DNA from: an uncultured bacterium | GTDB lineage: Bacteria > Babelota > Babeliae > Babelales > Vermiphilaceae | Assembly (NCBI GenBank): GCA_963698045.1 | Contig: OY969115.1 | Span: 843,467 to 907,466 of the forward strand | Length of the DNA: 64,000 nucleotides | Direction of reading: 5' to 3' | Notes under the pieces: model-generated | What the model was told of the DNA's origin: nothing | Seen by the model: the letters and a program-made list of their open reading frames with translations, nothing else | The model's database searches: none | Translations under genes and position numbers: made by a program | In this document: piece by piece, positions 20,380-41,177 of the stretch | Layout: each line of letters opens with the position of its first letter | How positions within the stretch are numbered: position 1 is the first letter of the stretch

Positions 20380-20403
20380 GTAAACCCTTTCACATATAGT
20401 TTG

Positions 20404-23070: not shown

Positions 23071-23098
23071 GCCCCGGCGACAAACCGGGGCTTTTTTT
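23071..23098 (+). terminator. Rho-independent terminator (plus strand)
   Basis: GCCCCGG-cgacaaa-CCGGGGC followed by TTTTTTT. Confidence 0.6.
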
Positions 23099-23111: not shown

Positions 23112-25745
23112 TTATGCACAAATTGTTTTACTCATAGTCCACTTAGCGCCATGATGCAGCAAATGAGCTTCTTCCTCTTTTATTTTTTCCATTAATTCCC
23201 GTACAGAAGATTCTACCGGGTGCTCTATTTTTTGCATAATGGCCGTTGCAACCGTATGCATACTGGCAGGAATATCTTTAAGATCAAATTGCAGATTCTC
23301 TTTAAAAACAATAGGCGGAACAACCTGCAAATCTATATCTAACTCAAAAGAGAGCATTGGACTTTTACCCGCTTTTAAATCTTTACCGGTCACTTCTATT
23401 TTAGCTGTTTTTAGATTGATTGCGTCTAGCGCTCCCAATGCTACCGCTTCAAATATTTTTGCAATTTCCTGATAGCCTTCTTTTAACTTTTGCGTTACGT
23501 GCAGCTCATGGTTAATCTGTTCCACTTCACTAGCTACCGCATGCAATGCGTCATCAATTTTAGTTTCTGCTTCCCAAAACCCTTTTTCTATGCGGGCCAA
23601 AATGTGGAGCAACCCATGTTCTACAAACTGTTCACAACTTTTTGGAAATGGTTTACCATGTTTTCCGTGACTTGCTTCCCATAATGCATACGCAGGAATA
23701 TCCACAATTTTAAAATCCGCACGGCATACTTTAAACTGATCATTAGTTTGTTGCACAACTTCATTATAGAGCAGCAGTTGTTTAAAATTACTGTAGCGTT
23801 CATCTTGTAACACATTATCTAATGAAGCCTGCAGATGCTGTATTTTAGGTTCCAGCTCATCTTTAATTTTTACATTAGCAAGCGCATGTAACTCTCTGGC
23901 AATTGCTGCTTTAAAATCTTGCTGAAATTGCATGATTAAATAAAATTCTTCAAAGTGTGATGGTTCAACTTGCAAAGAGACCGTTGTGCTAAAGGCATTC
24001 GCTAACGTAAAGGTAAAGCCAACATCAAAACAACTGCTGCTTAAAATAAACTCTTGTACATCAACGGCAAGATCAATCAATGGCACTTCTACCTTAGCAG
24101 TAAACCCTAACAGATTGTTTGCAGGCTTGTTGCCATTAATGGTTAATTTACCGGTTAAGTTAGAGATGGAAATAACGGTGCTCTTAAATGGCGGCATAGT
24201 TACTTGACCAGAAATTAGATATGTTTCTGGATCTATAATTAATTGCAACTCCGCTTCTCTGTGTGCAATCTCTGCATCAAACTTACCCCAAAAACCTTGG
24301 GGAACATTAGTAGAACCCAATTGCGTACTTTCTGATGCAAAATAAATACCACTTCCTTTTTTTAACACTATCTCTGGCAAATTTCTGGTGTCTGTTGGGG
24401 AACTATCATGATCTATTTTATGTGCCATACGTGAAAACCATTCTACTAATGGAGAGAAATTAAGATCCCCTTCTAACTCTGTCCCAAATGCAATAATAGG
24501 CAGTCCACGAGATTCCAAAGAAACTAACCCTTCCATCATAAGATCAAACTCTTTTTCTTTACCTAATGAAAATTCACCCGCTAATCCAAACCCAGTGAAT
24601 GGAATGCCCATGGCAAGAACAACCCCTTCAAAGGCATAATCCACAATAATTTTTAGATTTACATTCCCTAAGCCCAACCAACTAATACCAAATGCAGGAT
24701 CCCACATACCTTGCATACCGGCAGTTATAGATACTTGCGTAGGACTAATATCACCTTCTAAGCTCAGCGTTAATGGTTCCAGTTGGCTTTTAATAGACAA
24801 CACCGTCTTACCAGACAATGCCAACTGCTGTTTAAGTGGATTAAAGGTAGCAGTTAAGTCTCCCATCATAATGGATCTTATTTTAAAAAAATGCTCATCA
24901 AACGCAGATATTTTTCCCTCTGACCGCAGCTGATCAAAATCTATGCCAAACTCAAAGGGCAGATCTACCTCTACAATTAAGCCATGCAAAATAGAACCAG
25001 ACAACGGGAATGAAACACCAATAGTTGCTGGTTTACCACTTGCCTTAAATGAACTGGTATGCCGCACTTTATCCACAAAACGTGCAGCCGCTTCAAAGGG
25101 ACCAGACAGTACGTTGCATTCTGCTGCAAGCGTTACGCCGGTATTAACTTTAACCGGTATGGTGGATGTAGTGGCAAAACTAAAAGAACTGGGAACTTGT
25201 GAAAAGAGAATATGTGCCGCAGGTAATTGAATATGCTGCAAAGAAGGATGGTTAGACGCATCTACATCTACCAAGGCAGTAAATTCAGCAAGATTATTGG
25301 TTTGACTAGCCTGGAACCCAATACCACGATAGAGTGTTCCATCATTCATTTGTATGGTAAAAAATTCACCGGTGCATTCCTCTCCCTCTATAATTAAACT
25401 TCCCATTGCCACATATCCTTGTGCAGAATTAGCGGGCATAGTGGTTGGTTTTACAATGCGCGGAGTAATTAATTGTATAAAGGGTTTATTGCATAATGTT
25501 ACAACGGTTGTTGTTTCTAATGAACTGAGCGCATTAAGTTCTGCTAATTTAAACCCTATATTGTCTAATGTATTTATAACCTCTGGCCCAAACTGGCTTG
25601 CCCCATCAGTAAAGAATGTAACCAGACTTTTGAACGCAGTAGTAACGGTAGAAGAGACCGTTGCCTGCACAGTTATACACGCAGCTAACAGTACCGTTGC
25701 AGCAAGCAGTTTAAACTTAGAAACAGGAAATTGGAAGGTCATCAT
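23112..25745 (-). CDS. Giant secreted protein family, member P1 (877 aa, short form)
   Basis: AGGAGA RBS. Signal peptide MMTFQFPVSKFKLLAATVLLAACITVQA. Shares blocks with P2/P3 (AQGY..GEFFT, GMWDPAFG.SWLGLGN, LPEIVLKKGSG). Confidence 0.8.
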   Translation of the reverse strand: MMTFQFPVSKFKLLAATVLLAACITVQATVSSTVTTAFKSLVTFFTDGASQFGPEVINTLDNIGFKLAELNALSSLETTTVVTLCNKPFIQLITPRIVKPTTMPANSAQGYVAMGSLIIEGEECTGEFFTIQMNDGTLYRGIGFQASQTNNLAEFTALVDVDASNHPSLQHIQLPAAHILFSQVPSSFSFATTSTIPVKVNTGVTLAAECNVLSGPFEAAARFVDKVRHTSSFKASGKPATIGVSFPLSGSILHGLIVEVDLPFEFGIDFDQLRSEGKISAFDEHFFKIRSIMMGDLTATFNPLKQQLALSGKTVLSIKSQLEPLTLSLEGDISPTQVSITAGMQGMWDPAFGISWLGLGNVNLKIIVDYAFEGVVLAMGIPFTGFGLAGEFSLGKEKEFDLMMEGLVSLESRGLPIIAFGTELEGDLNFSPLVEWFSRMAHKIDHDSSPTDTRNLPEIVLKKGSGIYFASESTQLGSTNVPQGFWGKFDAEIAHREAELQLIIDPETYLISGQVTMPPFKSTVISISNLTGKLTINGNKPANNLLGFTAKVEVPLIDLAVDVQEFILSSSCFDVGFTFTLANAFSTTVSLQVEPSHFEEFYLIMQFQQDFKAAIARELHALANVKIKDELEPKIQHLQASLDNVLQDERYSNFKQLLLYNEVVQQTNDQFKVCRADFKIVDIPAYALWEASHGKHGKPFPKSCEQFVEHGLLHILARIEKGFWEAETKIDDALHAVASEVEQINHELHVTQKLKEGYQEIAKIFEAVALGALDAINLKTAKIEVTGKDLKAGKSPMLSFELDIDLQVVPPIVFKENLQFDLKDIPASMHTVATAIMQKIEHPVESSVRELMEKIKEEEAHLLHHGAKWTMSKTICA

Positions 25746-25900
25746 GAATTCTCCTTTTTTTGTTTAGTTATATATGAACTCATGTAAAACCTACTAAATA
25801 GTTAACTAATTAGTAAAAGGATAGTGCAGCGTAGCGGATCTTAGCCATGAATATGCAGAAAATAGGACGGGGTAAAAAATGGTAAGTGTGCATCCGCTTT

Positions 25901-25931
25901 AAAAAAAAGGCCCCGGTGTTATCCAGGGCGC
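25901..25931 (-). terminator. Rho-independent terminator after 26009..26758
   Basis: Minus-strand CCCUGG / CCGGGG stem followed by U8. Duplicated at 28968..28997. Confidence 0.55.
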
Positions 25932-26008
25932 TTTGTATACGGTAATGAATACTTTTACTTGCAAATAGAGAAGACAAATCCCTCTACTATAAGATCATTA
26001 CTTGGTCA

Positions 26009-26758
26009 TTATCTTGGCTCGTGTGCTGCTTTAACCAATTCATTCACGAAGGCTTCCAGTTTTACAATTCTAATTCTTTGAGCAATCGGATCTACACCTT
26101 TTTGATCCTTTGTTTCTTGCAATAGTTTATTTACTTGCCCATGTAAGGTTAGTAATTCATCTTGTGGAATGAGAGCTAACAATAAACCTCTTGAAGTCCC
26201 GCGACTCTTTTCTAATGCTGATTTCACTGAAGCTTTTTCTAATTTGTTCTGACCACTTTGTAATATTCGCTTTCCTGGCTCAGAAGCATCAATCGTTGCT
26301 TTTCTGCCAATCGCCTTACCTAATTCAGCCCAAACATCACTAAACTGTTTAATAAGATCTGCATTTACGCCTCTTTGATTCTTTATATTTTCATTCTGTT
26401 TAATTGCTTCTTGCAGTAGATCGTATACCAGCAATTGAAGCGTCATTAATTCTTCTTTTGGTATAACTGCAAAGAACAAACTTTCCAGAGTCCAACTTCT
26501 ACTCGCTTCAAATACTTTTTCTAATTGTTTACTTCTATCATCCAGTAAGTTTCGCTTTACTGGTTCAGGAATAATTACTGGACCAGCTTGACTTACGCTT
26601 CCCCTTAGTCCAACCATTTCAGAACCTTTTACTACCGGATGATCTAATCCACCGCCACCCACACGAGCAAATTCCCTCACATATTCACTTGCTTGTAAAC
26701 TGGATGCAAATACAGTAACTAATGTCAAAGTTACTATTTTATTACACATATTCTTCAT
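26009..26758 (-). CDS. Secreted two-repeat protein, R family (249 aa)
   Basis: Start at MKNMCNKIVTLTLVTVFASSLQA (AAGGAG RBS), as in paralog 27038..27793. Contains an internal duplication of a ~85-aa module. Confidence 0.75.
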   Translation of the reverse strand: MKNMCNKIVTLTLVTVFASSLQASEYVREFARVGGGGLDHPVVKGSEMVGLRGSVSQAGPVIIPEPVKRNLLDDRSKQLEKVFEASRSWTLESLFFAVIPKEELMTLQLLVYDLLQEAIKQNENIKNQRGVNADLIKQFSDVWAELGKAIGRKATIDASEPGKRILQSGQNKLEKASVKSALEKSRGTSRGLLLALIPQDELLTLHGQVNKLLQETKDQKGVDPIAQRIRIVKLEAFVNELVKAAHEPR

Positions 26759-26886
26759 AAAAAAACACTCCTTAAGTAGTTTATTACATAAACTCTTCAT
26801 AATATCTTCGTTTTTTTATCTGCGTATACTGCTATTACAACAAACAAGAGGAGAAAAATTTCTCCCCTTGCTTTAAAAATAATCAC

Positions 26887-27019
26887 TTACTTAGTGCCAG
26901 CTACTTTTTCTTCTTGATCAGCGATAGCCTTATCTACGGCTTCGTCATCTATTTGTAAATCGCGAATATATCCTACTGACATGTGTTTATCTTTTGCAGT
27001 TTTTAACGCGTGTTTAATC
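26887..27019 (-). pseudogene. 3' fragment (~44 codons) of a copy of the 29948..30253 gene
   Basis: Near-identical to 29948..30080. Homology stops abruptly at ~27019, and the 27038..27793 gene follows. Confidence 0.7.
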
Positions 27020-27037
27020 AGTTCATTACTTGTGTCT

Positions 27038-27793
27038 TTACTTCTTTGCGATTGCTGCTTTACGCAGTTCAGTCACTAAGGCTTCCAGGTTTACAATTCT
27101 AAATCCTTTATCAATCGCATTTACCCCTTTTTGATTCTTTGTTTCTTGCAATAATTTGTTTACCTGCCCATGCATTTGTAGCAATTCCTGTTGTGGTATA
27201 AGCTCAAGGAATAGGCCCCTTAAAGTCCAACCACCTTTTTCTAATGCTTTTTCCACTGAAGCTTTTTCTAACTGTTCATTTGGTATTATTCGCTTTCCTG
27301 GCTCAGAAGCATCAATTGTTGCTTTGCTGCGAATCGCTTTACCCAATCCAGCCCAAATACCACTCAAGTGGTTAACGCGAGCTATTTGAATAGTTAGAAC
27401 TATTGGATTTACACCTTGTTTCATCATGTTATCTTTAGCTTTAGTAGCGTCTTGCAGTAGATCATATACTCGCAATTGAAGCGTCATTAATTCTTCTTTT
27501 GGAATAACTGCAAAGAACAAACTTTCCGAAGTCCAACTTCTACTCGCTTCAAATACTTTTTCTAATTGCTTACTTCTATCATCCAGTAAGTTTCGCTTTA
27601 CTGGTTCAGGAATAATTACTGGAGCAGCTTGACTTACGCTGCCCATTGCTCCAACCATTTCACCAGCTTGGAGGCCGCTTAACCTACCGCCACCCACACG
27701 AGCAAATCCCCTCACATATTCACTTGCTTGTAAACTGGATGCAAATACAGTAACTAATGTCAAAGTTACTATTTTATTACACATATTCTTCAT
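27038..27793 (-). CDS. Secreted two-repeat protein, R family (251 aa, diverged paralog)
   Basis: Same signal peptide and same two-module layout as 26009..26758 and 29076..29819. Confidence 0.75.
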   Translation of the reverse strand: MKNMCNKIVTLTLVTVFASSLQASEYVRGFARVGGGRLSGLQAGEMVGAMGSVSQAAPVIIPEPVKRNLLDDRSKQLEKVFEASRSWTSESLFFAVIPKEELMTLQLRVYDLLQDATKAKDNMMKQGVNPIVLTIQIARVNHLSGIWAGLGKAIRSKATIDASEPGKRIIPNEQLEKASVEKALEKGGWTLRGLFLELIPQQELLQMHGQVNKLLQETKNQKGVNAIDKGFRIVNLEALVTELRKAAIAKK

Positions 27794-28136
27794 AAAATCA
27801 CTCCTTTTTTGGATTACAAATATACACTTTCAATAATGAGAGGCTATTCTTTACAGCCCCTCATTATTAGAATAAACAATTTCTATTAGAAATATCAAGA
27901 GTTTGGGAATAAATGCTCTTAAAGTAGCCATAGATCGCTCTTTAGCTTAAAAAGCCCGTATTTCGCGGAAATTCTTTAACGCAATACCCTGTTTCCGTTT
28001 ATATTTGCATCTCTATTTATGCCTTCCCATTCTACTCAAGACATATGATCAATCTTTTAAAAAACCTAAGATAAATGAGCAAAGGGCAAAAGAAAAAATC
28101 TTCTGCCCTTTCACCAAATTACTCATATTTACGTTT

Positions 28137-28815
28137 CTACATCTTCTCTACTGCCGAACCAGGTCCCGCTTGTGTTGGGTAATCTTGATTCTTAGGTTTT
28201 GCTTCTGCCTTAGCAGTTGCCTTACCCGTCACTATTTTATACGGTAGAGAATTCGCAAAATCAGGATATTGCGCACGTACACGATCCGCTGTTCCCTTTG
28301 TACTTGCGTCTCTATTTATTCCGTCCCACTCTAATTGTGGAATAAATACGTTGTAGTATTTTTCTATATTAGATTTATTCTCTGCAGATAGGTTTCCACC
28401 ATTTAATATTAGGAACATTCCTAAACCATCAACCACTTCATTTCTTTGAGCCTCAGTCAATACTTTTTCTCTGGATCGAATATCCGGCATAACGGTAACC
28501 TTTCCTTCCAATTGGCTTTTGGGAACAAGTGTAACTTTACCATCCACCGGTTTTAACCCAGACTCAAGATAAACTGGGTAATCGGTAATTGCATAATTAG
28601 TATCTGAATATACATCAGCAATTACTCGCATTATTACCAATGGTGAACCACCACCTAAGCCAGCCTGAAGTCTTGGAATTATGTTTTTATTCAATTCTAC
28701 AATTACACTGTCCGCAGAAAGACCAACCTTTTTAGAATAGTTATCAGCGATTAATTTTTGCAATTCTTCTAATCTGGGCAATTTTGCGCCAAGGGAATTG
28801 GTAGGTCATCATGAA
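28137..28815 (-). pseudogene. Chimeric remnant: first ~6 codons of a P1-like gene fused out of frame to the last ~650 nt of a P2-like gene
   Basis: 28137..~28791 is near-identical to 31123..~31777. 28797..28815 matches the P1 start (ATGATGACCTACCAATTCC). Reading from that ATG hits a stop after ~22 codons. Confidence 0.75.
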
Positions 28816-28967
28816 TTCTCCTTTTTTTGTTTAGTTATATATGAACTCATGTAAAACCTACTAAATAGTTAACTAATTAGTAAAAGGATAGTGCAGCGTA
28901 GCGGATCTTAGCCATGAATATGCAGAAAATAGGACGGGGTAAAAAATGGTAAGTGTGCATCCGCTTT

Positions 28968-28997
28968 AAAAAAAAGGCCCCGGTGTTATCCAGGGCG
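28968..28997 (-). terminator. Duplicate of the 25901..25931 terminator
   Basis: Same hairpin and U-run, inside duplicated segment X. Confidence 0.55.
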
Positions 28998-29075
28998 CTT
29001 TGTATACGGTAATGAATACTTTTACTTGCAAATAGAGAAGACAAATCCCTCTACTATAAGATCATTACTTGGTCA

Positions 29076-29819
29076 TTATCTTAGCTCGTGTGCTGCTTTA
29101 ACCAATTCATTCACGAAGGCTTCCAGTTTTACAATTCTAATTCTTTGAGCAATCGGATCTACACCTTTTTGATCCTTTGTTTCTTGCAATAGTTTATTTA
29201 CTTGCCCATGTAAGGTTAGTAATTCATCTTGTGGAATGAGAGCTAACAATAAACCTCTTGAAGTCCCGCGACTCTTTTCTAATGCTGATTTCACTGAAGC
29301 TTTTTCTAATTTGTTCTGACCACTTTGTAATATTCGCTTTCCTGGCTCAGAAGCATCAATCGTTGCTTTTCTGCCAATCGCCTTACCTAATTCAGCCCAA
29401 ACATCACTAAACTGTTTAATAAGATCTGCATTTACGCCTCTTTGATTCTTTATATTTTCATTCTGTTTAATTGCTTCTTGCAGTAGATCGTATACCAGCA
29501 ATTGAAGCGTCATTAATTCTTCTTTTGGTATAACTGCAAAGAACAAACTTTCCAGAGTCCAACTTCTACTCGCTTCAAATACTTTTTCTAATTGCTTACT
29601 TCTATCATCCAGTAAGTTTCGCTTTACTGGTTCAGGAATAATTACTGGACCAGCTTGACTTACGCTTCCCCTTAGTCCACCCCTTTCACCACCTTGGAGT
29701 CCGCTTAACCTACCGCCACCCACACGAGCAAATTCCCTCACATATTCACTTGCTTGTAAACTGGATGCAAATACAGTAACTAATGTCAAAGTTACTATTT
29801 TATTACACATATTCTTCAT
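29076..29819 (-). CDS. Secreted two-repeat protein, R family (247 aa)
   Basis: Nearly identical to 26009..26758, apart from a short patch after the signal peptide that resembles 27038..27793. Confidence 0.75.
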   Translation of the reverse strand: MKNMCNKIVTLTLVTVFASSLQASEYVREFARVGGGRLSGLQGGERGGLRGSVSQAGPVIIPEPVKRNLLDDRSKQLEKVFEASRSWTLESLFFAVIPKEELMTLQLLVYDLLQEAIKQNENIKNQRGVNADLIKQFSDVWAELGKAIGRKATIDASEPGKRILQSGQNKLEKASVKSALEKSRGTSRGLLLALIPQDELLTLHGQVNKLLQETKDQKGVDPIAQRIRIVKLEAFVNELVKAAHELR

Positions 29820-29947
29820 AAAAAAACACTCCTTAAGTAGTTTATTACATAAACTCTTCATAATATCTTCGTTTTTTTATCTACGTATACTGCTATTACA
29901 ACAAACAAGAGGAGAAAAATTTCTCCCCTTGCTTTAAAAATAATCAC

Positions 29948-30253
29948 TTACTTAGTGCCAGCTACTTTTTCTTCTTGATCAGCGATAGCCTTATCTACGG
30001 CTTCGTCATCTATTTGTAAATCGCGAATATATCTTACTGACATGTGTTTATCTTTTGCATTTTTTAACGCGTGTTTAATCTGTTGATGTTCTTTTTTTGC
30101 TTTGGCTAACTTCATTGGCGTAATTGGTCCTTTAAGCTTTAATGCATCACTTGTTGGATGTGATTGTAGTACGGTTCCTGTTGCTGAATTTATTTCGATC
30201 GTTCCAAGAGTTATAGCCAAGCTTAAAACAATTGCTAAATTAATTTTATTCAT
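29948..30253 (-). CDS. Small secreted hypothetical protein (101 aa)
   Basis: Signal peptide MNKINLAIVLSLAITLGTIEINSA. Charged helical C-terminus. A truncated copy lies at 26887..27019. Confidence 0.6.
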   Translation of the reverse strand: MNKINLAIVLSLAITLGTIEINSATGTVLQSHPTSDALKLKGPITPMKLAKAKKEHQQIKHALKNAKDKHMSVRYIRDLQIDDEAVDKAIADQEEKVAGTK

Positions 30254-30286
30254 GTTATTTCCTCTAAAATTATAGTTCCTAATAAA

Positions 30287-30754
30287 TTACGCAGCATTCA
30301 TTTGTAATGCACCATAATCTGTTCCAACACATGCGTCATTGTTATGAATATTTTCTAATCGCACGCCTTGCGACGCAGGAATAGTTTTTTCTTCCCCGTT
30401 ATCATAAACGGCTTTTACATATATACGATATTCATAACTTGATCTTCCTCCACCCCAATCAAAAGAATACGTTTTACCTATTGTTGATAGTGTGTCACTT
30501 CCGCGGAAGGTTTCAGTACGCTCACTACTCCAAAGTGATTCAACACTTAAATACGCTTCTAGTTTTATACTTTTTACACGTTCTGCAAGTATGGGAACAA
30601 TTTTGACAGAACCACATAAACTACCTTGAGCAACAAGCTGTATATACTCTCTTCCAGATTCGTCGGTCGAAAACTTTGGATCAACCGAACGAGCTTGAAT
30701 TAAAGCGCCTGAGGTGATGCATAACAATGCACCTAAACGTAAAATATTCTTCAT
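30287..30754 (-). CDS. Small secreted hypothetical protein (155 aa)
   Basis: Signal peptide MKNILRLGALLCITSGALIQA. Beta-rich composition. Immediately downstream of P2. Confidence 0.6.
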   Translation of the reverse strand: MKNILRLGALLCITSGALIQARSVDPKFSTDESGREYIQLVAQGSLCGSVKIVPILAERVKSIKLEAYLSVESLWSSERTETFRGSDTLSTIGKTYSFDWGGGRSSYEYRIYVKAVYDNGEEKTIPASQGVRLENIHNNDACVGTDYGALQMNAA

Positions 30755-31122
30755 AAACCCTACTCCTTCTATGGTTTAATGAAATTATTAATATATATTT
30801 ATCCTGATCATACCCCCAACCTACAAGAGGTCATTCTCCTAACCCCTCGTTATTATAATAAATAATTTCTATTAGAAATATCAAGGGTTTGGGAATAAAT
30901 GCTCTTAAAGTAGCCATAGATCGCTCTTTAGCTTAAAAAAACCGTATTTCGCGGAAATTCTTTAAAGCAATACCCTGTTTCTGTTTATATTTGCATCTCT
31001 ATTTATGCCGTCCCATTCTACTTAAGACATATGATCAATCTTTTAAAAAACCTAAGATAAATGAGCAAAGAGCAAAAGATTTTTTCTTCTGCCCTTTCAC
31101 CAAATTACTCATATTTACGTTT

Positions 31123-34100
31123 CTACATCTTCTCTACTGCCGAACCAGGTCCCGCTTGTGTTGGATAATCTTGATTCTTAGGTTTTGCTACTTCTGGCTT
31201 AGCCATTGCCTTACCCGCCACTATTTTATATGGTTGAGAATTCGCAAAATCAGGGTACAGTCCACGCACACGATCCGCTGTTCCCTTTGTACTTGCGTCT
31301 CTATTTATTCCGTCCCACTCTAATTGTGGAATAAATACGTTGTAGTATTTTTCTATATTAGATTTATTCTCTGCAGATAGGTTTCCACCATTTAATATTA
31401 GGAACATTCCTAAACCATCAACCACTTCATTTCTTTGAGCCTCAGTCAGTACTTTTTCTCTGGATCGAATATCCGGCATAACGGTAACCTTTCCTTCCAA
31501 TTGGCTTTTGGGAACAAGTGTAACTTTACCATCCACTGGTTTTAACCCAGATTCAAGATAAACTGGGTAATCGGTAATTGCATAATTAGTATCTGAATAT
31601 ACATCAGCAATTACTCGCATTATTACCAATGGTGAACCACCACCTAAGCCAGCCTGAAGTCTTGGAATTATGTTTTTATTCAATTCTACAATTACACTGT
31701 CCGCAGAAAGACCAACCTTTTTAGAATAGTTATCAGCGATTAATTTTTGCAATTCTTCTAATCTTGGCAATTTTGCGCCATCAGCAACGCGTTGCAATGT
31801 TGTCAATACTCTTGCTTTAGCAGTTTCAGAAAGATTCTCTGCTGCAACCAGATCTGCTAGCCATTCATTAAATGGTTTTAATGATGCTTCTTTTTTAGCA
31901 CGTTTAGCTTCAGGTTCATTCATTATGCGATCGCGTTTTTGTTTTTCCATTCGTACTTGAGGAGCTAGTTTTTCAATTACGGTTTCTTCTTTAAAGCGCG
32001 CTCTCATATCTGTTGCTGATTGTCTAGAAACCGCTTCTTGCGCAACCATTGCATCATATTGTTCTTGAGTCAATGGGATATTAAGCACCAATTCAATTGC
32101 TTGCTTATCAATTGGTTTTCTAAGCAACTTTCTTAATTTGATTGCGTCTGCGCCCTTAAATCTTAAATTGGTTTCAGCAAGTACTTTTTGCGCGGCTATA
32201 TATTCTGCTGACGGTGGCGTTTCTGTTGCTGGTGCTTCACCAAATACTTTACCAGCAAGATCCTTTCTACCTTCTTCTTTTAAGGCTTTTGCAGCAAGAT
32301 CTTTCGCAAAGTTCAACAACGGATCTTTAATCTTATTCCAGATTTGTTCTGCAACATTTTTAATTGAATCTCCAACACTTTTAAAGTTAAATGATACGTC
32401 ATCAAACTTAAGCGGTATAATTCCGATATCTTTAGAGATAGCAGTAAGATCTATTTCTGCGTCCAGAGAAAGTGCTGGGCTTTGGCCTTCTTTTAACTTC
32501 TTGCCATCATAGACAACCTTACCGGACCTAACTTTGAATATTTTTAATGCACCGGCAATTACTTTGCTAATAAGGCCAATAGTGTCATTAATTACTTCGC
32601 TAAATTTCTCATCTACTTTCTCTTTTTCATACCAATCATCAACCTTGGTAACTGCAGATAACATTGCATCTGTTATTTTTTCCAAGATTAATGAATTTGC
32701 GGCCTCTAGTGAGCTTTTCAGCTCTAATACGTTTGCGCCAACAACTACTTTACATGCAGGCAATTCTTGATCCAAAATATACATAGCACCGGCGGCCAAT
32801 GCTGGGTTAGCCCAAGCAGCACCTATAGTTGCCCGTTCTATCCAAGAAAGATTATTGTATTGTTTTTTACAATCAACAAGGGCACGGTTAGCTTGTTCAT
32901 GACGCTTGTTAGCTTCTACCGCTGCAACATATTCCATATAAGCGTTAGCTTTTTTTGCTTTTTCCAATTCTGATTTAGCTGCATTAAGTAGCTGTTCAAT
33001 TTCCACTTTTACCTTTGTCTTACCCCAATCTTCCACTGCCTTAATAAGTGCATCTTGGAACTTTTGTTGAAATTTCATCATGACATACAGTTCATCTATC
33101 TTTTTAGGATTTATTTTAAGTTCAACGTCTGCATTAAACAGATCACTAATCGCAAATTCAAAGTCACCGTTAAAGCCGTCGTTGTTAATACCCAATTTTG
33201 CTTTCATAGAAAGATCAATTGCAGGTATTGCAACTTGACCGTCAAACTTAAATTCATCTTTAGAAACGTCGTTAAAATCTAAGAATAATCTCCCATTCAA
33301 TGGACCAGTTCCTGCGAAGTCAGAAATGTTTACAATTGGGGTGTTATTAATTTTTATTTTAACGGGACCAAGCTTACCATCAGGAAGCATTTGACCCAGA
33401 GATACTGCACCATCAAATTTTTTCTCATCAGTATCTAACATAGCCGCTATTTTGGCTTGGTAATCGTATATTACCGCATCTAACAACAGGTTAAACCCTT
33501 GTTTGTAGCTAGTATTACCAATGGCACCAGGACTTGTTGCAAATGCCAATCCACTGTTCTTTTTGATTAATATTTCTGGTAAATCTGTTGCCTGAATACT
33601 CTTTTTAAATACCTCTCTGCCTATCCACGCAATAAGTTCATCAATATGCATATCATTGTCTAAGTTACCGGCAAATCCAAATAATGGTGGTACCAGAGTA
33701 GTATCTATGTCACCATTAAGACTTATTTTAAATTCGTCATTGGTACCTAATGCGAGCGTTCCGGCAAATCCTAATTGGGTAAAGGGAACACCCGCTGTTG
33801 CAGCAACAAGCAGCGCCGTCTCATTAGTACTTTGACCAATAGTGAATCGCAAGTTTCCAATTCCTAACCAGTCAAGACCAAATGCAGGATCCCACATGCC
33901 ATCCATCATTGCTTGGAACTTCCATCCCTCTTTACCTAATTCACCCTCTGCGGCAAAATTAAGCGCTGGCTGTTTTGGATTAAGCATTTCTAAAGTAGCT
34001 TTTGCCCCTAGTGCTAATTGACCATTAGCGGGAGTTACCTTTAAGAATAAATCACCAAAATTAAATGATTTTAAATTAAGTTTTGTACTTAAGGAATTAT

Positions 34101-34962
34101 CTTTAAGCTTAGTAAAGTCAACCCCAAAACGCACTGCTAATGCAGCAGATATTGTAACTTTAGAGAGTGACATATTTTCTAACGGAGTCTGCACTGCCAA
34201 ATTAATAGAATCACCAGTAGCGGTAGCCGCTTGGCCTGTGACGCTATTCAAAAAATTTTGCAGGTATTGGAACGCACCAGTTAATGGAACAGTTGCAATA
34301 ATATTAATACCAGGCTTAATTTCTACTGTTTGATTAGTAGAAGTCTGATATTTAAATACATCAGATCCCGCTATTTTATCGTCAGCAAAGTTTTGGGTAA
34401 CTACAATACGAATGCCCGGCATTTGGAAATTTTTTAATGCATCCGGTGCAGAAATACCCATTGCAGTGACTAAATCATAAATAGTAGGTTGCGTTCCACT
34501 AGTGCCCAACTCTATACCAAAGCCACGGAACTTAATCCCGGACACATTACCGGCAGCATTTTTTGTTTCTAACGTAAAAAATTCACCACCAAATGTTTGT
34601 CCCGCAAACTCAACGGCACCACGTAAGATATAACCTTGCGCCATATTCCTAGGTAGTTCAGCAAACTTAACTAGATTAGGGTTAACCAATTTTATTGAAG
34701 GACTATCAAGAATAGTGATAGTTTGAGCGGGAATTTTTCCCACTACCTCAAATCCCAAATTATCTAACAATGAAGGTGTTTCTGCTTTAGGATTTGCTTT
34801 CCATTGGTTAAACGTATCTGTTACCAATGATTTAAGATCGGTAATCTTTTTCTTTATCTCTGCTACATCAATAGCTTGCAACGAACTACTTGCTGTAGTT
34901 AGTATAAGCAGCGCGCTCAACAGTACGTTGCGCAGTACGCTCATATTTTTATATATCTTCAT
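31123..34962 (-). CDS. Giant secreted protein family, member P2 (~1279 aa)
   Basis: ATG at 34962 (AAGGGA RBS). Signal peptide ending SSSLQA. Closely similar to P3 over the full length. N-terminal module shared with P1. Confidence 0.85.
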   Translation of the reverse strand: MKIYKNMSVLRNVLLSALLILTTASSSLQAIDVAEIKKKITDLKSLVTDTFNQWKANPKAETPSLLDNLGFEVVGKIPAQTITILDSPSIKLVNPNLVKFAELPRNMAQGYILRGAVEFAGQTFGGEFFTLETKNAAGNVSGIKFRGFGIELGTSGTQPTIYDLVTAMGISAPDALKNFQMPGIRIVVTQNFADDKIAGSDVFKYQTSTNQTVEIKPGINIIATVPLTGAFQYLQNFLNSVTGQAATATGDSINLAVQTPLENMSLSKVTISAALAVRFGVDFTKLKDNSLSTKLNLKSFNFGDLFLKVTPANGQLALGAKATLEMLNPKQPALNFAAEGELGKEGWKFQAMMDGMWDPAFGLDWLGIGNLRFTIGQSTNETALLVAATAGVPFTQLGFAGTLALGTNDEFKISLNGDIDTTLVPPLFGFAGNLDNDMHIDELIAWIGREVFKKSIQATDLPEILIKKNSGLAFATSPGAIGNTSYKQGFNLLLDAVIYDYQAKIAAMLDTDEKKFDGAVSLGQMLPDGKLGPVKIKINNTPIVNISDFAGTGPLNGRLFLDFNDVSKDEFKFDGQVAIPAIDLSMKAKLGINNDGFNGDFEFAISDLFNADVELKINPKKIDELYVMMKFQQKFQDALIKAVEDWGKTKVKVEIEQLLNAAKSELEKAKKANAYMEYVAAVEANKRHEQANRALVDCKKQYNNLSWIERATIGAAWANPALAAGAMYILDQELPACKVVVGANVLELKSSLEAANSLILEKITDAMLSAVTKVDDWYEKEKVDEKFSEVINDTIGLISKVIAGALKIFKVRSGKVVYDGKKLKEGQSPALSLDAEIDLTAISKDIGIIPLKFDDVSFNFKSVGDSIKNVAEQIWNKIKDPLLNFAKDLAAKALKEEGRKDLAGKVFGEAPATETPPSAEYIAAQKVLAETNLRFKGADAIKLRKLLRKPIDKQAIELVLNIPLTQEQYDAMVAQEAVSRQSATDMRARFKEETVIEKLAPQVRMEKQKRDRIMNEPEAKRAKKEASLKPFNEWLADLVAAENLSETAKARVLTTLQRVADGAKLPRLEELQKLIADNYSKKVGLSADSVIVELNKNIIPRLQAGLGGGSPLVIMRVIADVYSDTNYAITDYPVYLESGLKPVDGKVTLVPKSQLEGKVTVMPDIRSREKVLTEAQRNEVVDGLGMFLILNGGNLSAENKSNIEKYYNVFIPQLEWDGINRDASTKGTADRVRGLYPDFANSQPYKIVAGKAMAKPEVAKPKNQDYPTQAGPGSAVEKM

Positions 34963-35220
34963 ACCCATTTCCCTTTTACAGAGAATTAATACCTTCTATG
35001 AATCACTCCTTGTGACTCCTAATACCAGGGTACAATATTACAAATAGAAATATCAACAATCAAAAATATATAGGTAAAAAAATGCCCCTTTTAAAGGGAA
35101 AAAGCATGATATTGCTCAGGTTAATTACCTTTTAGCCAAGAATCTTTTTTAGGCAATTGCAAATAAAAAGACCCCAAGATATTTTCCTGGGACCTACTTT
35201 TGGGTCTATTATGTTATTTT

Positions 35221-35345
35221 GTTACTTTACCTGTAACTATTTTATATAATTGAGAATTCTCAAAATCAGGGTATAGTCCACGCACACGATCCGTTGTGGC
35301 ATTGGTATTGGCATCTCTATTTTATTATGCCGTCCCATTCTCCTT
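35221..35345 (-). pseudogene. Vestigial 3' end of another giant-gene copy
   Basis: Degenerate match to 35534..35662 (the P3 3' coding end), no open frame. Lies between the P3 terminator and the P2 promoter region. Confidence 0.55.
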
Positions 35346-35403
35346 AAGAAAATATGATCATCTTATCCTTAAAAAAACCTAAGGGTTAGGGTTAAATGTA
35401 ATG

Positions 35404-35436
35404 GTAAAAAGGGCAGAAGATTTTTTCTTCTGCCCT
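35404..35436 (-). terminator. Rho-independent terminator after P3
   Basis: Perfect 9-bp stem GGGCAGAAG / CTTCTGCCC followed by UUUUU on the minus strand. Confidence 0.7.
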
Positions 35437-35463
35437 TTTACCAAATTACTCATATTTACGTGA

Positions 35464-38400
35464 CTACATCTTCTCTACTGCCGAACCAGGTCCCGCTTGT
35501 GTTGGATAATCTTGATTCTTAGGTTTTGATACTTCTGACTTAGCCGTTACCTTACCCGCCACTATTTTATATGGTTGAGAATTCTCAAAATCAGGATATA
35601 GTCTACGCACACGTTCTGCTGTTGCATTTGTATTTGCATCTCTATTTATTGCGTCCCAATCTATTTGTGGAATAAATACGTTGTAATATTTTTCTATATT
35701 CGATTTATTCTCTGCAGATACGTTACCACCATTTAACACTAGGAACATTCCTAAACCATCAACCACTTCATCTCTTTGTGCACCAGTCAATACTTTTTCT
35801 GGGCGAACTTCAAGATAGTCTGGGTAATCGGTAATTGCATAGTTAGTATCTGAATATACATCCGCAATTACTCGCATAATTACTAATGGTGAACCACCTC
35901 CAAGCCCCTTCTGCAATCTTGGAATTATGCGTTGATTCATTTCTGCAATGATGGTGTCAGCAGAAAGACCACCAATTTTCTTAGAATAATTGTCAGCGAT
36001 TAGCTTTTGTAATTCTTGTACTGACGACAGCCTTGCCCCATCAGCAACACGTTGTAATGTAGCCAATACTCTTGCTTTGGAAGGCTCAGGTAGATTCTCT
36101 GCTGCAACCAGATCTGCGAGCCATTCATTAAACGGTTTTAGTGTTGCTTCTTTTTTAACTCCTTTAGCTTCTGACGATTTCGCCAGTTGATCACGTCTTT
36201 TCTTTTCCATCTGTACTTGAGGGGCTAGTTTTTCTATTGCAGTTTCTTCTTTAAAGCGCACTTTCATATCTGTCGCTGCTTGTTTAGAAAGAGCTTCTTG
36301 CCCTACCATTGCATCATATTGTGCTTGGGTTAATACGGTATTAAGTGCAGATTCTATTGCTCCCTTATCAAATGGTTTATTAAGAGATTTTCTTAAAGCT
36401 ATTTCTTCAGCACCATTGATTCTTAAATTAGTTTCAGCAAGTACTTTTTGAGCAGCTATATATTCTGCTGACGGTGGCGCTTCTGTTGCCGGTGCTTTAC
36501 CAAATACTTTATCAGCAAGATCCGCTCTACCTTCTTCTGTTAAGGCTTTTGCAGCAAGTTCTTTCGCAAAGTTCAACAACGGATCTTTAATCTTGTTCCA
36601 AATTTGTTCTGCAACATTCTTAATTGAATCGCCAACACTCTTGAAGTTAAATGATACGTCATCAAACTTAAGTGGTATTTTACCAATGTCTTTAGAGATA
36701 TCAGTAAGATCTATTTCTGCATCAAGTGAAAGCGCTGGGCTTTGGCCTTCTTTTAACTTCTTGCCATCATAGACAACCTTACCGGACCTAACCTTAAATA
36801 TTTTTAATGCACCAGCAACCACTTTGCTAATAAGACCAATAGTGTCATTAATTGCTTCGCTAAATTTCTCATCTACTTTCTCTTTTTCATACCAATCATC
36901 AACCTTGGTAACTGCAGATAACATTGCATCTGTTATTTTTTCCAAGATTAGTGAATTTGCAGCCTCTAATGAGCTTTTTAACTCTAATACGTTTGCGCCA
37001 ACAACTACTTTACATGCAGGCAATTCTTGATCCAAAATTAATAAAGCACCTGCAGTTCCAAATGGAGGAACCCAAGCAGCACTTATAGTTGCCTGTTCTA
37101 TCCAAGAAAGATTATTGTATTGTTTTTTACAATCAACAAGGGCACGGTTAGCTTGTTCATGACGCTTGTTAGCTTCTACCGCTGCAATGTATTCCATATA
37201 AGCGTTAGCTTTTTTTGCTTTTTCCAATTCTGATTTAGCTGCATTAAGTAGCTGTTCAATTTCCACTTTTACCTTTGTCTTACCCCAATCTTCCACTGCC
37301 TTAATAAGTGCATCTTGGAACTTTTGTTGGAATTTCATCATGACATACAGTTCATCTATCTTTTTAGGATTTATTTTAAGTTCAACGTCTGCGCTAAACT
37401 GATCACTGATCGCAAATTCAAAGTCACCATTAAAACCGTCATTGTTAATACCCAATTTTGCTTTCATGGAAAGATCAATTGCTGGGATTGCAACTTGACC
37501 GTCAAACTTAAACTCATCTTTAGAGGTATCATTAAAGTCTAGGAATAACCTACCATTCAATGCCCCAGTTCCTGCAAAATCAGAAATGTTTACAATCGGG
37601 GTATCATTAATTTTTATTTTAATGGGACCAAGTTTATTATCAGGCAACATTTCACCCAGCCAAACTTCGCCTTTAAATTTTTTCTCTTCGGTATCAACCA
37701 TGATGTCTAATTTTGCTTGGTACCCAGTGATTACCGCGTCAAACAACAGGTTAAACCCTTGTTTGTAGACCGTATTACCAATGGTACCTGGAGCCGTTGC
37801 GAATGCTAATCCACTATTCTTTTTGATAGTAATTTCTGGTAAGTCTGTTGCCTGAATACTCTTTTTGAATACATCTCTGCCTATCCATGCAATAATGTCG
37901 GCCATCTTTAGTTCATTGTCTAATTTACCGGCAAATCCAAATAATGGTGGTACCAGAGTAGTATCTATATCACCATTAAGACTTATTTTAAATTCGTCAT
38001 TGGTACCTAACGCAAGCGTTCCGGCAAATCCTAATTGGGTGAACGGAACACCGGCAACTGCAGCCACTTGTAATGCTACCGGATTAGTACTTTGACCAAT
38101 AGTGAATCGCAAGTTTCCAATCCCTAACCAGTCAATACCAAACGCCGGATCCCACATGCCATCCATCATTGCTTGGAACTTCCACCCCTCTTTACCAAGT
38201 TCACCATCGGCAGAAAAATTAAGTGCAGGTTGTTTTGGATTAAGCATTTCTAAAGTAGCTTTAGCTCCCAATGCTAATTGACCATTAGCCGGAGTTACTT
38301 TTAGTAAAAAATCACCAAAATTAAATGCTCTTAAATTAAGTTTTGTACTCAAAGAAGGATCTTTAAGCTTGGTAAAATCAATCCCAAAACGTACTGCTAA

Positions 38401-39222
38401 TGCAGCCGATATTGCAACTTTAGAAAGTGACATATTTTCTAATGGAGTCTGCACTGCCAAATTCATGGTGCCACCGGTAGCGGTAATTGGTTGCCCCGTC
38501 ACACTATTTATAAAGTTCTGCAGATATTCAAACGCGCCAGTTAATGGAACCGTTGCTACAATATTAAGACCGGGTTTAATTTCTACTGTTTGATTAGTAG
38601 AAGTCTGATATTTAAATACATCCGATCCCGCTATTTTATCGTCAGCAAAATTTTGCGTAACTACAATGCGAATGCCCGGCATTTGGAAATTTTTTAACGC
38701 ATCCGGCGCAGTAATACCCATTGCAGTGACTAAATCATAAATAGTAGGTTGCGTTCCACTAGTGCCCAACTCTATACCAAAGCCACGGAACTTAATCCCA
38801 GACACGTTACCAGCAGCATTTTTAGTTTCTAACGTAAAGAATTCACCACCAAATGTTTGTCCCGCAAACTCAACCGCACCACGCAAGATATACCCTTGTG
38901 CCATATTCTTGGGTAATTCTGCAAACTTAATTAGATTAGGGTTAACCAATTTTATTGAAGGACTATCAAGAATAGTGATAGTTTGAGCGGGAATTTTCCC
39001 CACTGCTTCAAAAGCTAAATTGTCTAATAATGCAGGTGTTTCTGCCTTAGGATTTTCTTTCCATTTCTTAAAGGTATCAGTTACTAATGTTTTAAGATCA
39101 GTAATCTTTTGTTTTATCTCATCTACACTAATAGCTTGCAACGAACTACTTACGGTACTTACTACAAGAAGCGCGCTCAGCAGTATGCGGCGTACCATGC
39201 TCCCCAATTTGTACGTCTTCAT
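35464..39222 (-). CDS. Giant secreted protein family, member P3 (~1252 aa)
   Basis: ATG at 39222 (GGGGAG RBS) aligns with the P2 start. Signal peptide ending SSSLQA. Same C-terminal tail KPKNQDYPTQAGPGSAVEKM as P2. Confidence 0.85.
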   Translation of the reverse strand: MKTYKLGSMVRRILLSALLVVSTVSSSLQAISVDEIKQKITDLKTLVTDTFKKWKENPKAETPALLDNLAFEAVGKIPAQTITILDSPSIKLVNPNLIKFAELPKNMAQGYILRGAVEFAGQTFGGEFFTLETKNAAGNVSGIKFRGFGIELGTSGTQPTIYDLVTAMGITAPDALKNFQMPGIRIVVTQNFADDKIAGSDVFKYQTSTNQTVEIKPGLNIVATVPLTGAFEYLQNFINSVTGQPITATGGTMNLAVQTPLENMSLSKVAISAALAVRFGIDFTKLKDPSLSTKLNLRAFNFGDFLLKVTPANGQLALGAKATLEMLNPKQPALNFSADGELGKEGWKFQAMMDGMWDPAFGIDWLGIGNLRFTIGQSTNPVALQVAAVAGVPFTQLGFAGTLALGTNDEFKISLNGDIDTTLVPPLFGFAGKLDNELKMADIIAWIGRDVFKKSIQATDLPEITIKKNSGLAFATAPGTIGNTVYKQGFNLLFDAVITGYQAKLDIMVDTEEKKFKGEVWLGEMLPDNKLGPIKIKINDTPIVNISDFAGTGALNGRLFLDFNDTSKDEFKFDGQVAIPAIDLSMKAKLGINNDGFNGDFEFAISDQFSADVELKINPKKIDELYVMMKFQQKFQDALIKAVEDWGKTKVKVEIEQLLNAAKSELEKAKKANAYMEYIAAVEANKRHEQANRALVDCKKQYNNLSWIEQATISAAWVPPFGTAGALLILDQELPACKVVVGANVLELKSSLEAANSLILEKITDAMLSAVTKVDDWYEKEKVDEKFSEAINDTIGLISKVVAGALKIFKVRSGKVVYDGKKLKEGQSPALSLDAEIDLTDISKDIGKIPLKFDDVSFNFKSVGDSIKNVAEQIWNKIKDPLLNFAKELAAKALTEEGRADLADKVFGKAPATEAPPSAEYIAAQKVLAETNLRINGAEEIALRKSLNKPFDKGAIESALNTVLTQAQYDAMVGQEALSKQAATDMKVRFKEETAIEKLAPQVQMEKKRRDQLAKSSEAKGVKKEATLKPFNEWLADLVAAENLPEPSKARVLATLQRVADGARLSSVQELQKLIADNYSKKIGGLSADTIIAEMNQRIIPRLQKGLGGGSPLVIMRVIADVYSDTNYAITDYPDYLEVRPEKVLTGAQRDEVVDGLGMFLVLNGGNVSAENKSNIEKYYNVFIPQIDWDAINRDANTNATAERVRRLYPDFENSQPYKIVAGKVTAKSEVSKPKNQDYPTQAGPGSAVEKM

Positions 39223-39437: not shown

Positions 39438-39932
39438 TTATGGTTTTAAACCTTTAAATGAGGGAGCAGTATTAGTTAAGAAGGTAGAAAAGGCTTCTAA
39501 CTTAGCAACCGCTTCTTGCAATACCGCAATAGTAGTAGAAGACAATGGCTCTTTACCCATTAATTTAAGTATGGCATTAATTTCATCTAATGCGCCGGTT
39601 TCTTTATGCCCCAACACGTCTGCTTTGCTAGACCCCACTAAACGTTCTAATACAGGAGCAATTTGATTTAACCCCATCGCCAAATCTACAAATTTGTCAC
39701 TATAATCCTTGGTTGGATCACTAACAACAGCACTAACACGTGCAACTTCATTAGAAAGCTTTAAGATTACTTCATCAGAAAGTTTGTCAAACTGTGCACG
39801 CAATGCGGCAATTGCTTTTGGTAACTCTTCATTTAACTGAGCTACAGACAAGGCACCGCTGCAGGCAGCTGCATTAGAAATGCCATGCACACCAAATCCC
39901 AACATTATAACCCCTATAACCACCTTCTTCAT
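39438..39932 (-). CDS. Secreted helical hypothetical protein (164 aa)
   Basis: Signal peptide MKKVVIGVIMLGFGVHGISNAAA. Ala/Leu-rich helical body. Confidence 0.6.
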   Translation of the reverse strand: MKKVVIGVIMLGFGVHGISNAAACSGALSVAQLNEELPKAIAALRAQFDKLSDEVILKLSNEVARVSAVVSDPTKDYSDKFVDLAMGLNQIAPVLERLVGSSKADVLGHKETGALDEINAILKLMGKEPLSSTTIAVLQEAVAKLEAFSTFLTNTAPSFKGLKP

Positions 39933-40150
39933 AAACCCTCCTTACTTGGTTTATACACATTAACAATAAAAACCTATACTATAGCAGTTAATACACCAAA
40001 TACATACCATAATGCTCCCTGCTACTTACAGGTTAAATTATTTACAAATAGAAAATCAAGAAAATTGATTATTAAGGATACTTAACACAAATTTTATTCT
40101 TTAGGTACAGGCATATATTTCCAAACCTGCACCTAAAAAATCTATCTATC

Positions 40151-40567
40151 CTACTGGGCTTGAGCACCTATTCCTAATTGCTCATTCACCATGTTGAGAA
40201 ATTGTTGCAATTTGGATTCACCTTTTTTTTCTTCTTCCATTGTTTTAGCGCTCGTGTCACCAAGCTTTTGTTGCTCTGTTAAATTACTTTCTGTACCAGC
40301 TATCATGTTTTTAACTTTTTCTTTCCACATATCAAGCTGTTGCAGCAACTTTTCTTTTTGTTCAGGAGATACTGCACTCTTTAGCTTTTCTAAAAGATCA
40401 TTACCCTTCTTTTGTAAGTCTTGTACCAAAGCTGAGGTATTTGTACCTGAAAAATATTCTGACAATTTAGCTTTAGCGTCGTCCCACAAAGTTGCAGATA
40501 TTGTAGAAACCGCAAACACTAATGATGTTGCAATCAAACTATTCTTTATATTAAATAAGTTCTTCAT
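40151..40567 (-). CDS. Secreted coiled-coil hypothetical protein (~138 aa)
   Basis: Signal peptide MKNLFNIKNSLIATSLVFAVSTISA. K/E/Q-rich heptad-like body. Confidence 0.6.
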   Translation of the reverse strand: MKNLFNIKNSLIATSLVFAVSTISATLWDDAKAKLSEYFSGTNTSALVQDLQKKGNDLLEKLKSAVSPEQKEKLLQQLDMWKEKVKNMIAGTESNLTEQQKLGDTSAKTMEEEKKGESKLQQFLNMVNEQLGIGAQAQ

Positions 40568-41161: not shown

Positions 41162-41177
41162 ACAATCTCTCCTTTTT

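Follow-up and report, generated by a model that had tools for sequence, protein, structure and literature searches.

What do three giant proteins encoded side by side in an uncultured bacterium do, and are the small secreted proteins encoded between them their partners? The question arises from a locus at 23.1–39.3 kb of a 64,000-nucleotide stretch of contig OY969115.1 (the whole stretch is hereafter the window), which a preliminary description had read as three paralogous giants, P1, P2, and P3, accompanied by recurrent small partners in a candidate secreted system. We find that the giants belong to an undescribed, phylum-wide family of exported beta-sheet proteins, the P family, that is linked to genes of type II secretion system (T2SS)/pilus type and has undergone a three-gene expansion in the window. 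The small genes have a different history, which is taken up after the giants. As first described, all sizeable open reading frames (ORFs) of the locus lie on the minus strand, and the three giants are as follows.

P1, 23112..25745, minus strand: 877 amino acids (aa), the shortest paralogue, core only (BLASTP, AlphaFold model).
P2, 31123..34968, minus strand: 1279–1281 aa, core plus C-terminal module.
P3, 35464..39222, minus strand: 1252 aa from the annotated Met, within an ORF that runs to 39267 (1267 aa).

The paralogy claimed for the giants holds: BLASTP aligned P1 with P3 at 27% identity over 919 aa (E 2e-92), P1 with P2 at 26% over 913 aa (E 2e-88), and P2 with P3 at 85%. The shared blocks quoted for them (NMAQGYILRG/NSAQGYVAMG, GEFFT, GMWDPAFG..WLG.GN, and LPEI..KK.SG) are present in the translations. 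P2 and P3 had also been said to add both a coiled-coil center and a C-terminal module; the module (~360–380 aa) is indeed extra, whereas the helical center is also found in P1, which can be aligned with P2/P3 across it up to P1 residue 861. The module of P2 contains a 28-aa insertion with a GKVT(L/V)xP mini-repeat. Overall, P2 and P3 differ with a ratio of nonsynonymous to synonymous divergence (dN/dS) of 0.22, so both are under purifying selection, and they form an older tandem pair than the ~3-kb duplication described below. Their synonymous divergence is a mosaic, ranging from 0.07 (aa 601–675) to 0.46 (aa 1051–1124), a pattern that suggests gene conversion between the tandem copies. P1–P3 arose from a single ancestral gene by tandem expansion specific to this lineage, and the 23–41.6-kb stretch is the expansion of a single P slot.

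We defined the family by full-length match to a core profile of ~830 positions (A2); its marks are an N-terminal signal peptide, a GMWDPAFG..WLxLGN-type block, a Cys pair in a helical hairpin, and terminal strands with a helix. P1, P2, and P3 match A2 at positions 4–832 with E values of 1e-189 to 1e-196. An exhaustive HMMER search with the core profile returned 183 representatives of clusters at 50% identity with E ≤ 1e-3, among them 111 with E ≤ 1e-10 and 37 with E ≤ 1e-30, the matches falling mostly on profile positions ~200–880; a word-indexed protein search found three relatives, and pattern scans for the core found no match in JGI metagenome contigs or in GTDB representative genomes, a set that seems not to include the source genome. 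A segment resembling a signal peptide opens nearly every full-length member. The C-terminal module of P2/P3 is confined to close relatives, namely a partial gene in related locus L001 and the relative P0009. No name could be attached to the family: Pfam and NCBIfam yielded noise only for all ten locus proteins, with no Pfam match at E ≤ 1 for P1–P3, sequence/profile searches of the PDB with the core and the C-terminal module gave nothing or coiled-coil noise only, and a literature search returned nothing specific. With Foldseek likewise empty, the earlier statement that the giants belong to no named family stands. The P family is broad, unnamed, and fast-evolving, and it occurs in bacteria related to Dependentiae (TM6/Babelota).

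Three features of these proteins bear on where they act. First, every product of the locus has a signal-peptide-like N-terminus—an n-region, a hydrophobic segment of 12–20 residues, and a small-residue cleavage site (SLQA, VQA, IQA)—and none has a second hydrophobic segment beyond it; these calls are heuristic, and to that extent the Sec signals reported earlier for all genes are confirmed. In P1 the signal peptide (25677–25745, residues 1–23) has a lipobox-like L-A-A-C (Cys23) followed by VQA, unlike the SLQA-type signal peptidase I sites of P2, P3, and the small R-family proteins, and from this LAAC motif P1 may be a lipoprotein. Second, DnaJ is the sole partner domain that Pfam detected in 35 P relatives at E ≤ 1e-3. 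It was found in P0010, P0017, P0020, P0023, and P0055, always after the signal peptide and N-terminal to the core, with a true HPD motif in P0010, P0017, and P0023. DnaJ (HPD)-bearing relatives are also encoded in loci L010 (10001–12724) and L012 (16–2886), and some ten further relatives have a degenerate J-like N-terminus with an insertion in place of the HPD loop. J domains require Hsp70 and ATP, neither of which is expected in the periplasm; the fusions need host Hsp70 and therefore argue for a host-facing role. Third, P evolves much faster than its neighbors, as seen against the close relative L005, in which GspF, p419, and g336 are 88%, 82%, and 80% identical to their counterparts in the window and P only 34%.

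The predicted structure adds a shape to these features. AlphaFold2, run on a 35-sequence alignment of the P core, gave a model with a mean predicted local distance difference test (pLDDT) score of 76.7 and a predicted TM-score (pTM) of 0.58, its beta core (residues ~270–620) reaching a pLDDT near 90; an earlier model from a four-sequence alignment (pLDDT 43) was not used for Foldseek. The model begins with N-terminal helices and continues with ~33 consecutive up-and-down strands connected by short turns (81–607), long helical hairpins of lower confidence (609–775), three further strands (776–819), and a final long helix of ~50 residues. The helical hairpin insertion before the last three strands is 170 residues long, and the family-conserved Cys pair, which accounts for both of the Cys residues in P2 (C700/C739) and in P3, lies in this helical region, where it would fit a disulfide formed outside the cytoplasm. 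Foldseek searches of the PDB and BFVD gave no match with E < 1e-3. Nearly all of the weak top matches were large membrane beta-barrels, namely VDAC1 (E 1.4e-3, Foldseek probability 0.96), SprA, LptD, TonB-dependent transporters, FimD, and Tom40, or the beta-belt of ApoB100 (E 1.8e-3), with TM-scores of 0.04–0.33. As modeled, P adopts a large meander-sheet fold that has no solved relative in the two databases compared. A beta-propeller fold was considered and rejected, as no propeller was among the Foldseek matches.

The neighborhood of the P genes supplies the remaining evidence. In the window, the genes and elements flanking P1–P3 are the following.

p1017, 43184..46237, minus strand: conserved gene, ~950–1017 aa, signal peptide.
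p419, 41790..43049, minus strand: conserved gene, 420 aa, likely an outer-membrane beta-barrel (terminal Phe).
s164, s140, s178, and s128, 39438..41564, minus strand: four small signal-peptide genes between p419 and P3.
GC-rich hairpin, 23071..23091, no strand: between the convergent P1 and g336, likely a bidirectional terminator.
g336, 21700..22710, plus strand: conserved gene, 320–336 aa, helical, signal peptide.
gspF/pilC-like platform gene, 20404–21642, minus strand: part of the cluster at 17841..21642.
gspG pseudopilin gene, 19936–20379, minus strand: further N-methyl pseudopilin-like genes lie in 17841..21642.

P genes were compared in 13 independent contexts, 11 of them informative and two on contigs too short to be so. 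In 9 of the 11 (the window, L001, L004, L005, L007/8, L010/11, L013, L016, and L017) a P gene, a divergent g336-like gene, and gspF–gspG–pseudopilins stand together; L010/11 has the same order plus two extra genes, and in L013 the g336-like gene lies upstream, between P paralogues, with the P genes immediately upstream of gspF and in its orientation. On the other side of P, a p419-like gene lies directly upstream in L006, L007/8, and L017; in L005 and the window it is likewise upstream, separated from P by small genes. p1017 precedes p419 wherever the contig reaches (window, L006, L007, and L017). The ancestral order was therefore comM, then p1017–p419–P, then g336, then gspF–gspG–pseudopilins, and P normally keeps to this one position in these genomes. 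The closest labeled fragment, a 'Candidatus Babeliales' metagenome-assembled genome (MAG; L002), shares the gene order, with GspF at 57% and ComM at 70% identity, so that the window most likely comes from a member of Dependentiae. Two or three P genes in tandem are found again in L001, L009, L010, L013, and L014, never with interspersed small genes.

Several of these neighbors deserve separate description. The p1017–p419 pair is conserved in the fetched relatives, its genes overlapping in L002 and L007, and p1017–p419–P forms an apparent operon in most of them. All p419 orthologues end in ...Φ-x-Φ-x-F, the classical outer-membrane beta-signal, and on this basis p419 is probably a novel outer-membrane barrel. 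Neither p1017 nor p419 has a match in Pfam or the PDB, and hhalign found both unrelated to the P profile. g336, likewise of no known family, occupies the place between P and gspF, divergent from gspF, in almost all of the related loci examined, at 34–80% identity among loci. Between g336 and P1, a 100-aa ORF with a TTG start (22707–23009, minus strand) overlaps the last bases of g336 and ends ~60 nucleotides (nt) before the terminator hairpin; it is probably no gene. Farther out, the flanks of the window carry comM beside the gsp genes as well as WD40 and leucine-rich repeat (LRR) genes: at 10739–13706 and 49387–51906 lie two tandem WD40 beta-propeller genes, one LRR_8 protein, and one NADAR-domain protein. 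Such eukaryote-like repeat proteins (WD40, LRR_8) are typical of host-associated bacteria.

Our favored reading, held with evenly balanced confidence, is that the P proteins are exported by Sec and face the host, either on the cell surface or as secreted proteins, with a link to the T2SS/pilus cluster. The host-facing part of this reading is based on the J-domain fusions, on rapid divergence combined with repeated tandem expansion, and on the biology of the phylum, which includes intracellular parasites of protists and many exported proteins (PMC6561590; PMC4776705) and in which Chromulinavorax destructans replicates in the host cytoplasm (PMC6561590). In a comparative study of the phylum, a T2SS and a possible type IV pilus are the only secretion or pilus machinery named (PMC4776705). 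The proteins are apparently exported, and a host-interaction role, one of several functions listed in the preliminary description, is plausible. In the mechanism we propose, Sec would export P, as the signal peptides indicate, and P would fold outside the cytoplasm into a ~33-strand meander sheet with a disulfide-stapled helical hairpin before the last three strands, as the AlphaFold model and the Cys pair suggest. The neighboring T2SS/pilus-type machinery, possibly with p419, would deliver P to the surface or the medium, a step for which synteny is the sole guide. P would then contact the host, where its amphipathic sheet may join a membrane, and the variable end modules would face the host, these being the ~380-aa C-terminal module for P2/P3 and J domains for relatives.

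Several observations weigh against this reading. The link between the P family and secretion is drawn from signal peptides and gene order, neither from homology nor from experiment; P genes occur without gspF in reach in L006 and L014/15, gspF loci occur without a nearby P gene in L002 and L003, and most loci have P and gspF in different transcription units, the divergent g336 lying between them. P1–P3 themselves have no J domain or other recognizable host-directed domain. Signal peptides are frequent in the phylum, being present in 44% of the coding sequences of C. destructans (PMC6561590), and the secretion of all locus products is less remarkable than it looks. The P fold may be a known one among predicted structures, the Foldseek comparison having covered the PDB and BFVD. 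The phylum assignment, finally, is based on one labeled MAG (L002), and L003 and L004 are labeled 'uncultured Pseudomonadota'. Both of the latter (CAYTRW010000012.1 and CAZYJE010000037.1) have the g336–gspF–gspG synteny of the Babeliales MAG and the window, L004 also has the P family, and their labels may be wrong.

Of the alternatives, the one that survives best, in our judgment unlikely all the same, would keep P in the envelope: an integral outer-membrane giant beta-barrel or porin-like translocon, held in a complex with p419 and p1017 in a phylum lacking lipopolysaccharide and not released. Transmembrane beta-barrels make up almost all of the weak top Foldseek matches, the model places ~36 up-and-down strands in sequence, joined by short turns, and P keeps a conserved position in an apparent operon with the outer-membrane-protein-like gene. 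Several of the fetched loci (L004, L005, L006, L007/8, L016, and L017) have a single copy of P. The fit to known barrels is poor, however, with TMq of 0.12–0.15 and TMt of at most 0.33, and no closed barrel of known size was matched. Nor is there a C-terminal beta-signal: P1–P3 end in ...TICA and ...AVEKM after the long helix, that is, in the ~50-residue helix or in the 380-aa helical module. Identity of 34% beside neighbors at 80–88% would be unusual for a structural component of the envelope, and N-terminal J domains would need to cross the outer membrane.

The pilus genes suggest another, rather improbable role, that of a pilus- or pseudopilus-associated adhesin, a functional analogue of PilY1/PilC displayed by the gspF–gspG–minor-pilin machinery for attachment to protists. 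P is large, Sec-dependent, beta-rich, and fast-evolving, as such an adhesin would be, and the L013 arrangement and the adjacency to platform, major, and minor pseudopilin genes in 9/11 informative contexts point the same way. Against it, Pfam gave no PilC/PilY1 match and Foldseek no beta-propeller, a divergent gene usually separates P from the pilin operon, and the J-domain fusions would be left unexplained.

A more ambitious proposal, to which we give a slender chance, joins P, p1017, p419, g336, and the T2SS/pilus-type genes into a Dependentiae-specific host-contact apparatus, in which P would insert into the host membrane or span the bacterial surface and show its variable modules (the J domains and the P2/P3 C-terminal module) to the host cytosol. 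A categorically new apparatus is possible; if true, it would amount to a previously unrecognized route of effector presentation built on a fold without a solved relative.

It is quite improbable that P is instead a lipid-binding or scavenging protein that takes host lipids with an apolipoprotein-like amphipathic sheet and helices. The idea draws on the ApoB100 beta-belt among the weak top Foldseek matches, on weak profile matches of the helical region to apolipoproteins A-I and A-IV (E 4e-4 to 0.05), on the presence in L007 and L016 of an MlaD gene after those for the pseudopilins, and on C. destructans, for which there is no evidence of lipid biosynthesis and host lipids are thought to be used (PMC6561590). 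All of these matches fall below significance and are of the sort that similar composition or coiled coils typically produce; LLTP, AsmA/TamB, and Lpt proteins gave no match in sequence or fold, and J-domain fusions find no explanation here either.

The second half of our question concerns the small genes, for which the following features of the locus are needed.

Ra, 26009..26800, minus strand: 263 aa, R-family, two repeats; likely true start Met15 at 26758.
s101 3' remnant, 26887..27026, minus strand: aa 59–101 at 95% identity, inside the duplicated block.
Rb, 27038..27793, minus strand: 251 aa, an older R-family paralogue.
Duplication scar, 28137..28812, minus strand: the last ~655 nt of P2 (96%) plus the first 21 nt, ribosome-binding site (RBS), and promoter region of P1.
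P2 C-terminal fragment ORF, 28137–28781, minus strand: 214 aa.
Rc, 29076..29861, minus strand: 261 aa, R-family.
s101, 29948..30253, minus strand: 101 aa, small, Lys-rich, signal peptide, orphan.
s155, 30287..30754, minus strand: 155 aa, signal peptide, orphan, 33 nt upstream of s101.
P2/P3 3'-end remnant, 35184..35341, minus strand: short and degenerate, downstream of P3.

One recent ~3-kb tandem duplication accounts for both the repeated layout and the orphan fragment. Self-BLASTN showed that 25725–27026 repeats 28792–30087 (98.0% over 1302 nt) and that 27857–28791 repeats 30843–31780 (96.2% over 938 nt), the duplicated blocks meeting at a junction at 28791/28792. Read along the coding strand, P1 contributes its promoter region, its RBS, and its first 21 nt (ATGATGACCTACCAATTCCCT) and gives way directly to P2 at codon ~1063, as would result from tandem duplication of a segment extending from inside the 3' end of P2 to codon 7 of P1. 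The giant-gene/small-gene recurrence that the preliminary description had taken as repetition is this single event, whereas its remark that the orphan fragment is nearly identical to the parent was correct: the fragment is 96% identical to the P2 C-terminus by BLASTP. We rejected the fragment as a functional gene, since the P1 ATG at the scar does not share the reading frame of the P2 part and meets a stop after 22 codons, and the ORF would need a TTG start without an evident RBS. The middle parts of the two copies are unlike, one holding s155 and the 5' part of s101 and the other Rb, so a secondary rearrangement followed the duplication. The s101 remnant and the degenerate P remnant are further scars.

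The small genes themselves are poorly conserved. The three R-family proteins do have two repeats, as described (internal local alignment scores of 81–86 against 25–28 for shuffles, SD ~5); Ra and Rc are 96% identical, and either is 72–74% identical to Rb at the protein level, with dN/dS of ~0.6. A search of 5.8 billion proteins found no R homologue outside this genome, only its own copies; R, s101, and s155 have none in any fetched related locus or P-family member, and sequence/profile searches of the PDB with s155 and R gave nothing or coiled-coil noise only. Homologues of s164 (42% identity) and s178 occupy the corresponding position in the close relative L005 and are lacking in more distant relatives. 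R, s101, and s155 thus appear to be young orphan genes caught in the ~3-kb duplication rather than conserved partners. Terminator-like hairpins lie 3' of P3, P2, the fragment, Rc, Ra, s101, and P1, and because each giant has its own, the giants are apparently separate transcription units; close gene spacing occurs only between s155 and s101 (33 nt). A multicomponent system in which each giant has dedicated small partners (R, s101, s155) of cargo/chaperone or toxin/immunity type could appeal to the small signal-peptide genes between the giants and to the retention in L005 of s164 and s178 upstream of its P gene, but it is largely refuted and very improbable, given that those partners are orphans multiplied by a 96–98% duplication with a mapped junction, that the two or three tandem P genes of relatives, which we compared for the same gene set, have no small genes between them, that hairpins follow each gene, that VENN, RTX, YD, and toxin domains are absent, and that immunity proteins are normally cytoplasmic whereas these products carry signal peptides. 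For annotation, the lesson is that a recent tandem duplication can mimic a modular architecture of giant gene, partner, and orphan cassette.

Dependentiae are widespread obligate parasites of protists, and the P family offers a starting point on how they act on their hosts. Large, unannotated, exported, evolving several times faster than its neighbors, expanding in tandem again and again, sometimes J-fused, and encoded beside the sole recognized secretion/pilus machinery, it is a candidate main host-interface factor that is testable in the few cultured species; p1017, the outer-membrane-protein-like p419, and g336 are flagged as further conserved proteins of the same neighborhood.

How, then, does the P family compare with known systems? 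Polymorphic toxin, contact-dependent inhibition (CDI), and Rhs loci resemble the window superficially, in that a giant gene is followed by small genes and a 3' fragment. That class has a variable C-terminal toxin after a pre-toxin motif (VENN, PxxxxDPxGL, or YD repeats), a matching immunity gene whose product is cytoplasmic, and divergent orphan cassettes. We rejected it, as the preliminary description had inclined to do: the locus has no VENN, YD, or toxin Pfam domains, its fragment is a 96% copy with a mapped junction, and its small genes encode signal peptides. The named families against which the giants were to be checked fared no better. AsmA/TamB proteins combine AsmA or DUF490/TamB domains with a beta-taco fold and are anchored in the membrane at the N-terminus; P1–P3 have no Pfam or NCBIfam match to them, a cleavable-looking signal peptide as their sole hydrophobic segment, and no such protein among their Foldseek matches. 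RTX proteins carry GGxGxD nonapeptide repeats and a C-terminal signal for the type I secretion system and lack an N-terminal signal peptide, whereas P1–P3 have such a signal peptide, 0 GGxGxD motifs, and no Pfam match (PF00353). Chlamydial Pmp proteins, like similar expanded surface families of obligate intracellular bacteria, resemble P in habit, being large, Sec-dependent, rapidly diverging tandem paralogues of a host-dependent bacterium with presumed host contact, but Pmp proteins have many GGA[ILV]/FxxN motifs and a beta-helix where P is predicted to form a meander sheet; with 0 GGA[ILV] and 0–1 FxxN per protein, no PF02415, and no autotransporter beta-domain (PF03797), a Pmp/autotransporter assignment was rejected.

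Among membrane proteins, large barrels (VDAC/Tom40, LptD, SprA) and the ApoB100 beta-belt share with P long antiparallel runs of up-and-down strands with short turns, at E ≥ 1.4e-3, and differ in that P lacks a terminal beta-signal and has the 170-residue helical hairpin. Barrels dependent on BAM are closed, and the beta-signal at their C-terminus finishes with an aromatic residue, usually Phe. The terminal Phe is present in p419; P1–P3, with their weak barrel matches, have the C-termini given above, and the A2 consensus has a QFDF-type internal strand before the final helix.

Likeness to proteins of secretion and pilus systems lies in gene order and habit. Tip adhesins of the PilY1/PilC kind are also large, beta-rich, fast-evolving, Sec-dependent, and encoded near minor pilin genes; unlike P, they have a C-terminal propeller domain, and the P gene is a transcription unit apart from the pilins. 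Assignment to them was rejected, with no PilC/PilY1 domain (PF05567) and no propeller among the Foldseek matches. T2SS substrates are defined by a Sec or Tat signal, periplasmic folding, and proven dependence on a T2SS; to our knowledge they have no defining sequence motif by which they could be recognized, and P is compatible with this class in its signal peptide, its Cys pair, and its adjacency to gspF–gspG in 9/11 contexts. Exoproteins are in some cases encoded beside a T2SS operon, as PulA is with pul and SslE/YghJ with gsp in Escherichia coli. P likewise is a Sec-signal protein encoded beside gsp genes, its secretion being suggested by that adjacency; it differs from PulA and SslE/YghJ in having no homology to them and no enzymatic domain, and in being linked to gspF–gspG and pseudopilins only, across a divergent gene.

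A further parallel concerns the J domain. Intracellular parasites export J-domain proteins, such as the exported Hsp40s of Plasmodium, and some P relatives combine, as these do, a signal peptide with an HPD J domain, which would imply action on host Hsp70; in contrast to the Plasmodium proteins, these relatives carry the J domain in fusion with the large P core, and P1–P3 are without it. Taken by analogy, the P family appears to behave like the known expanded surface and secreted families of intracellular bacteria.

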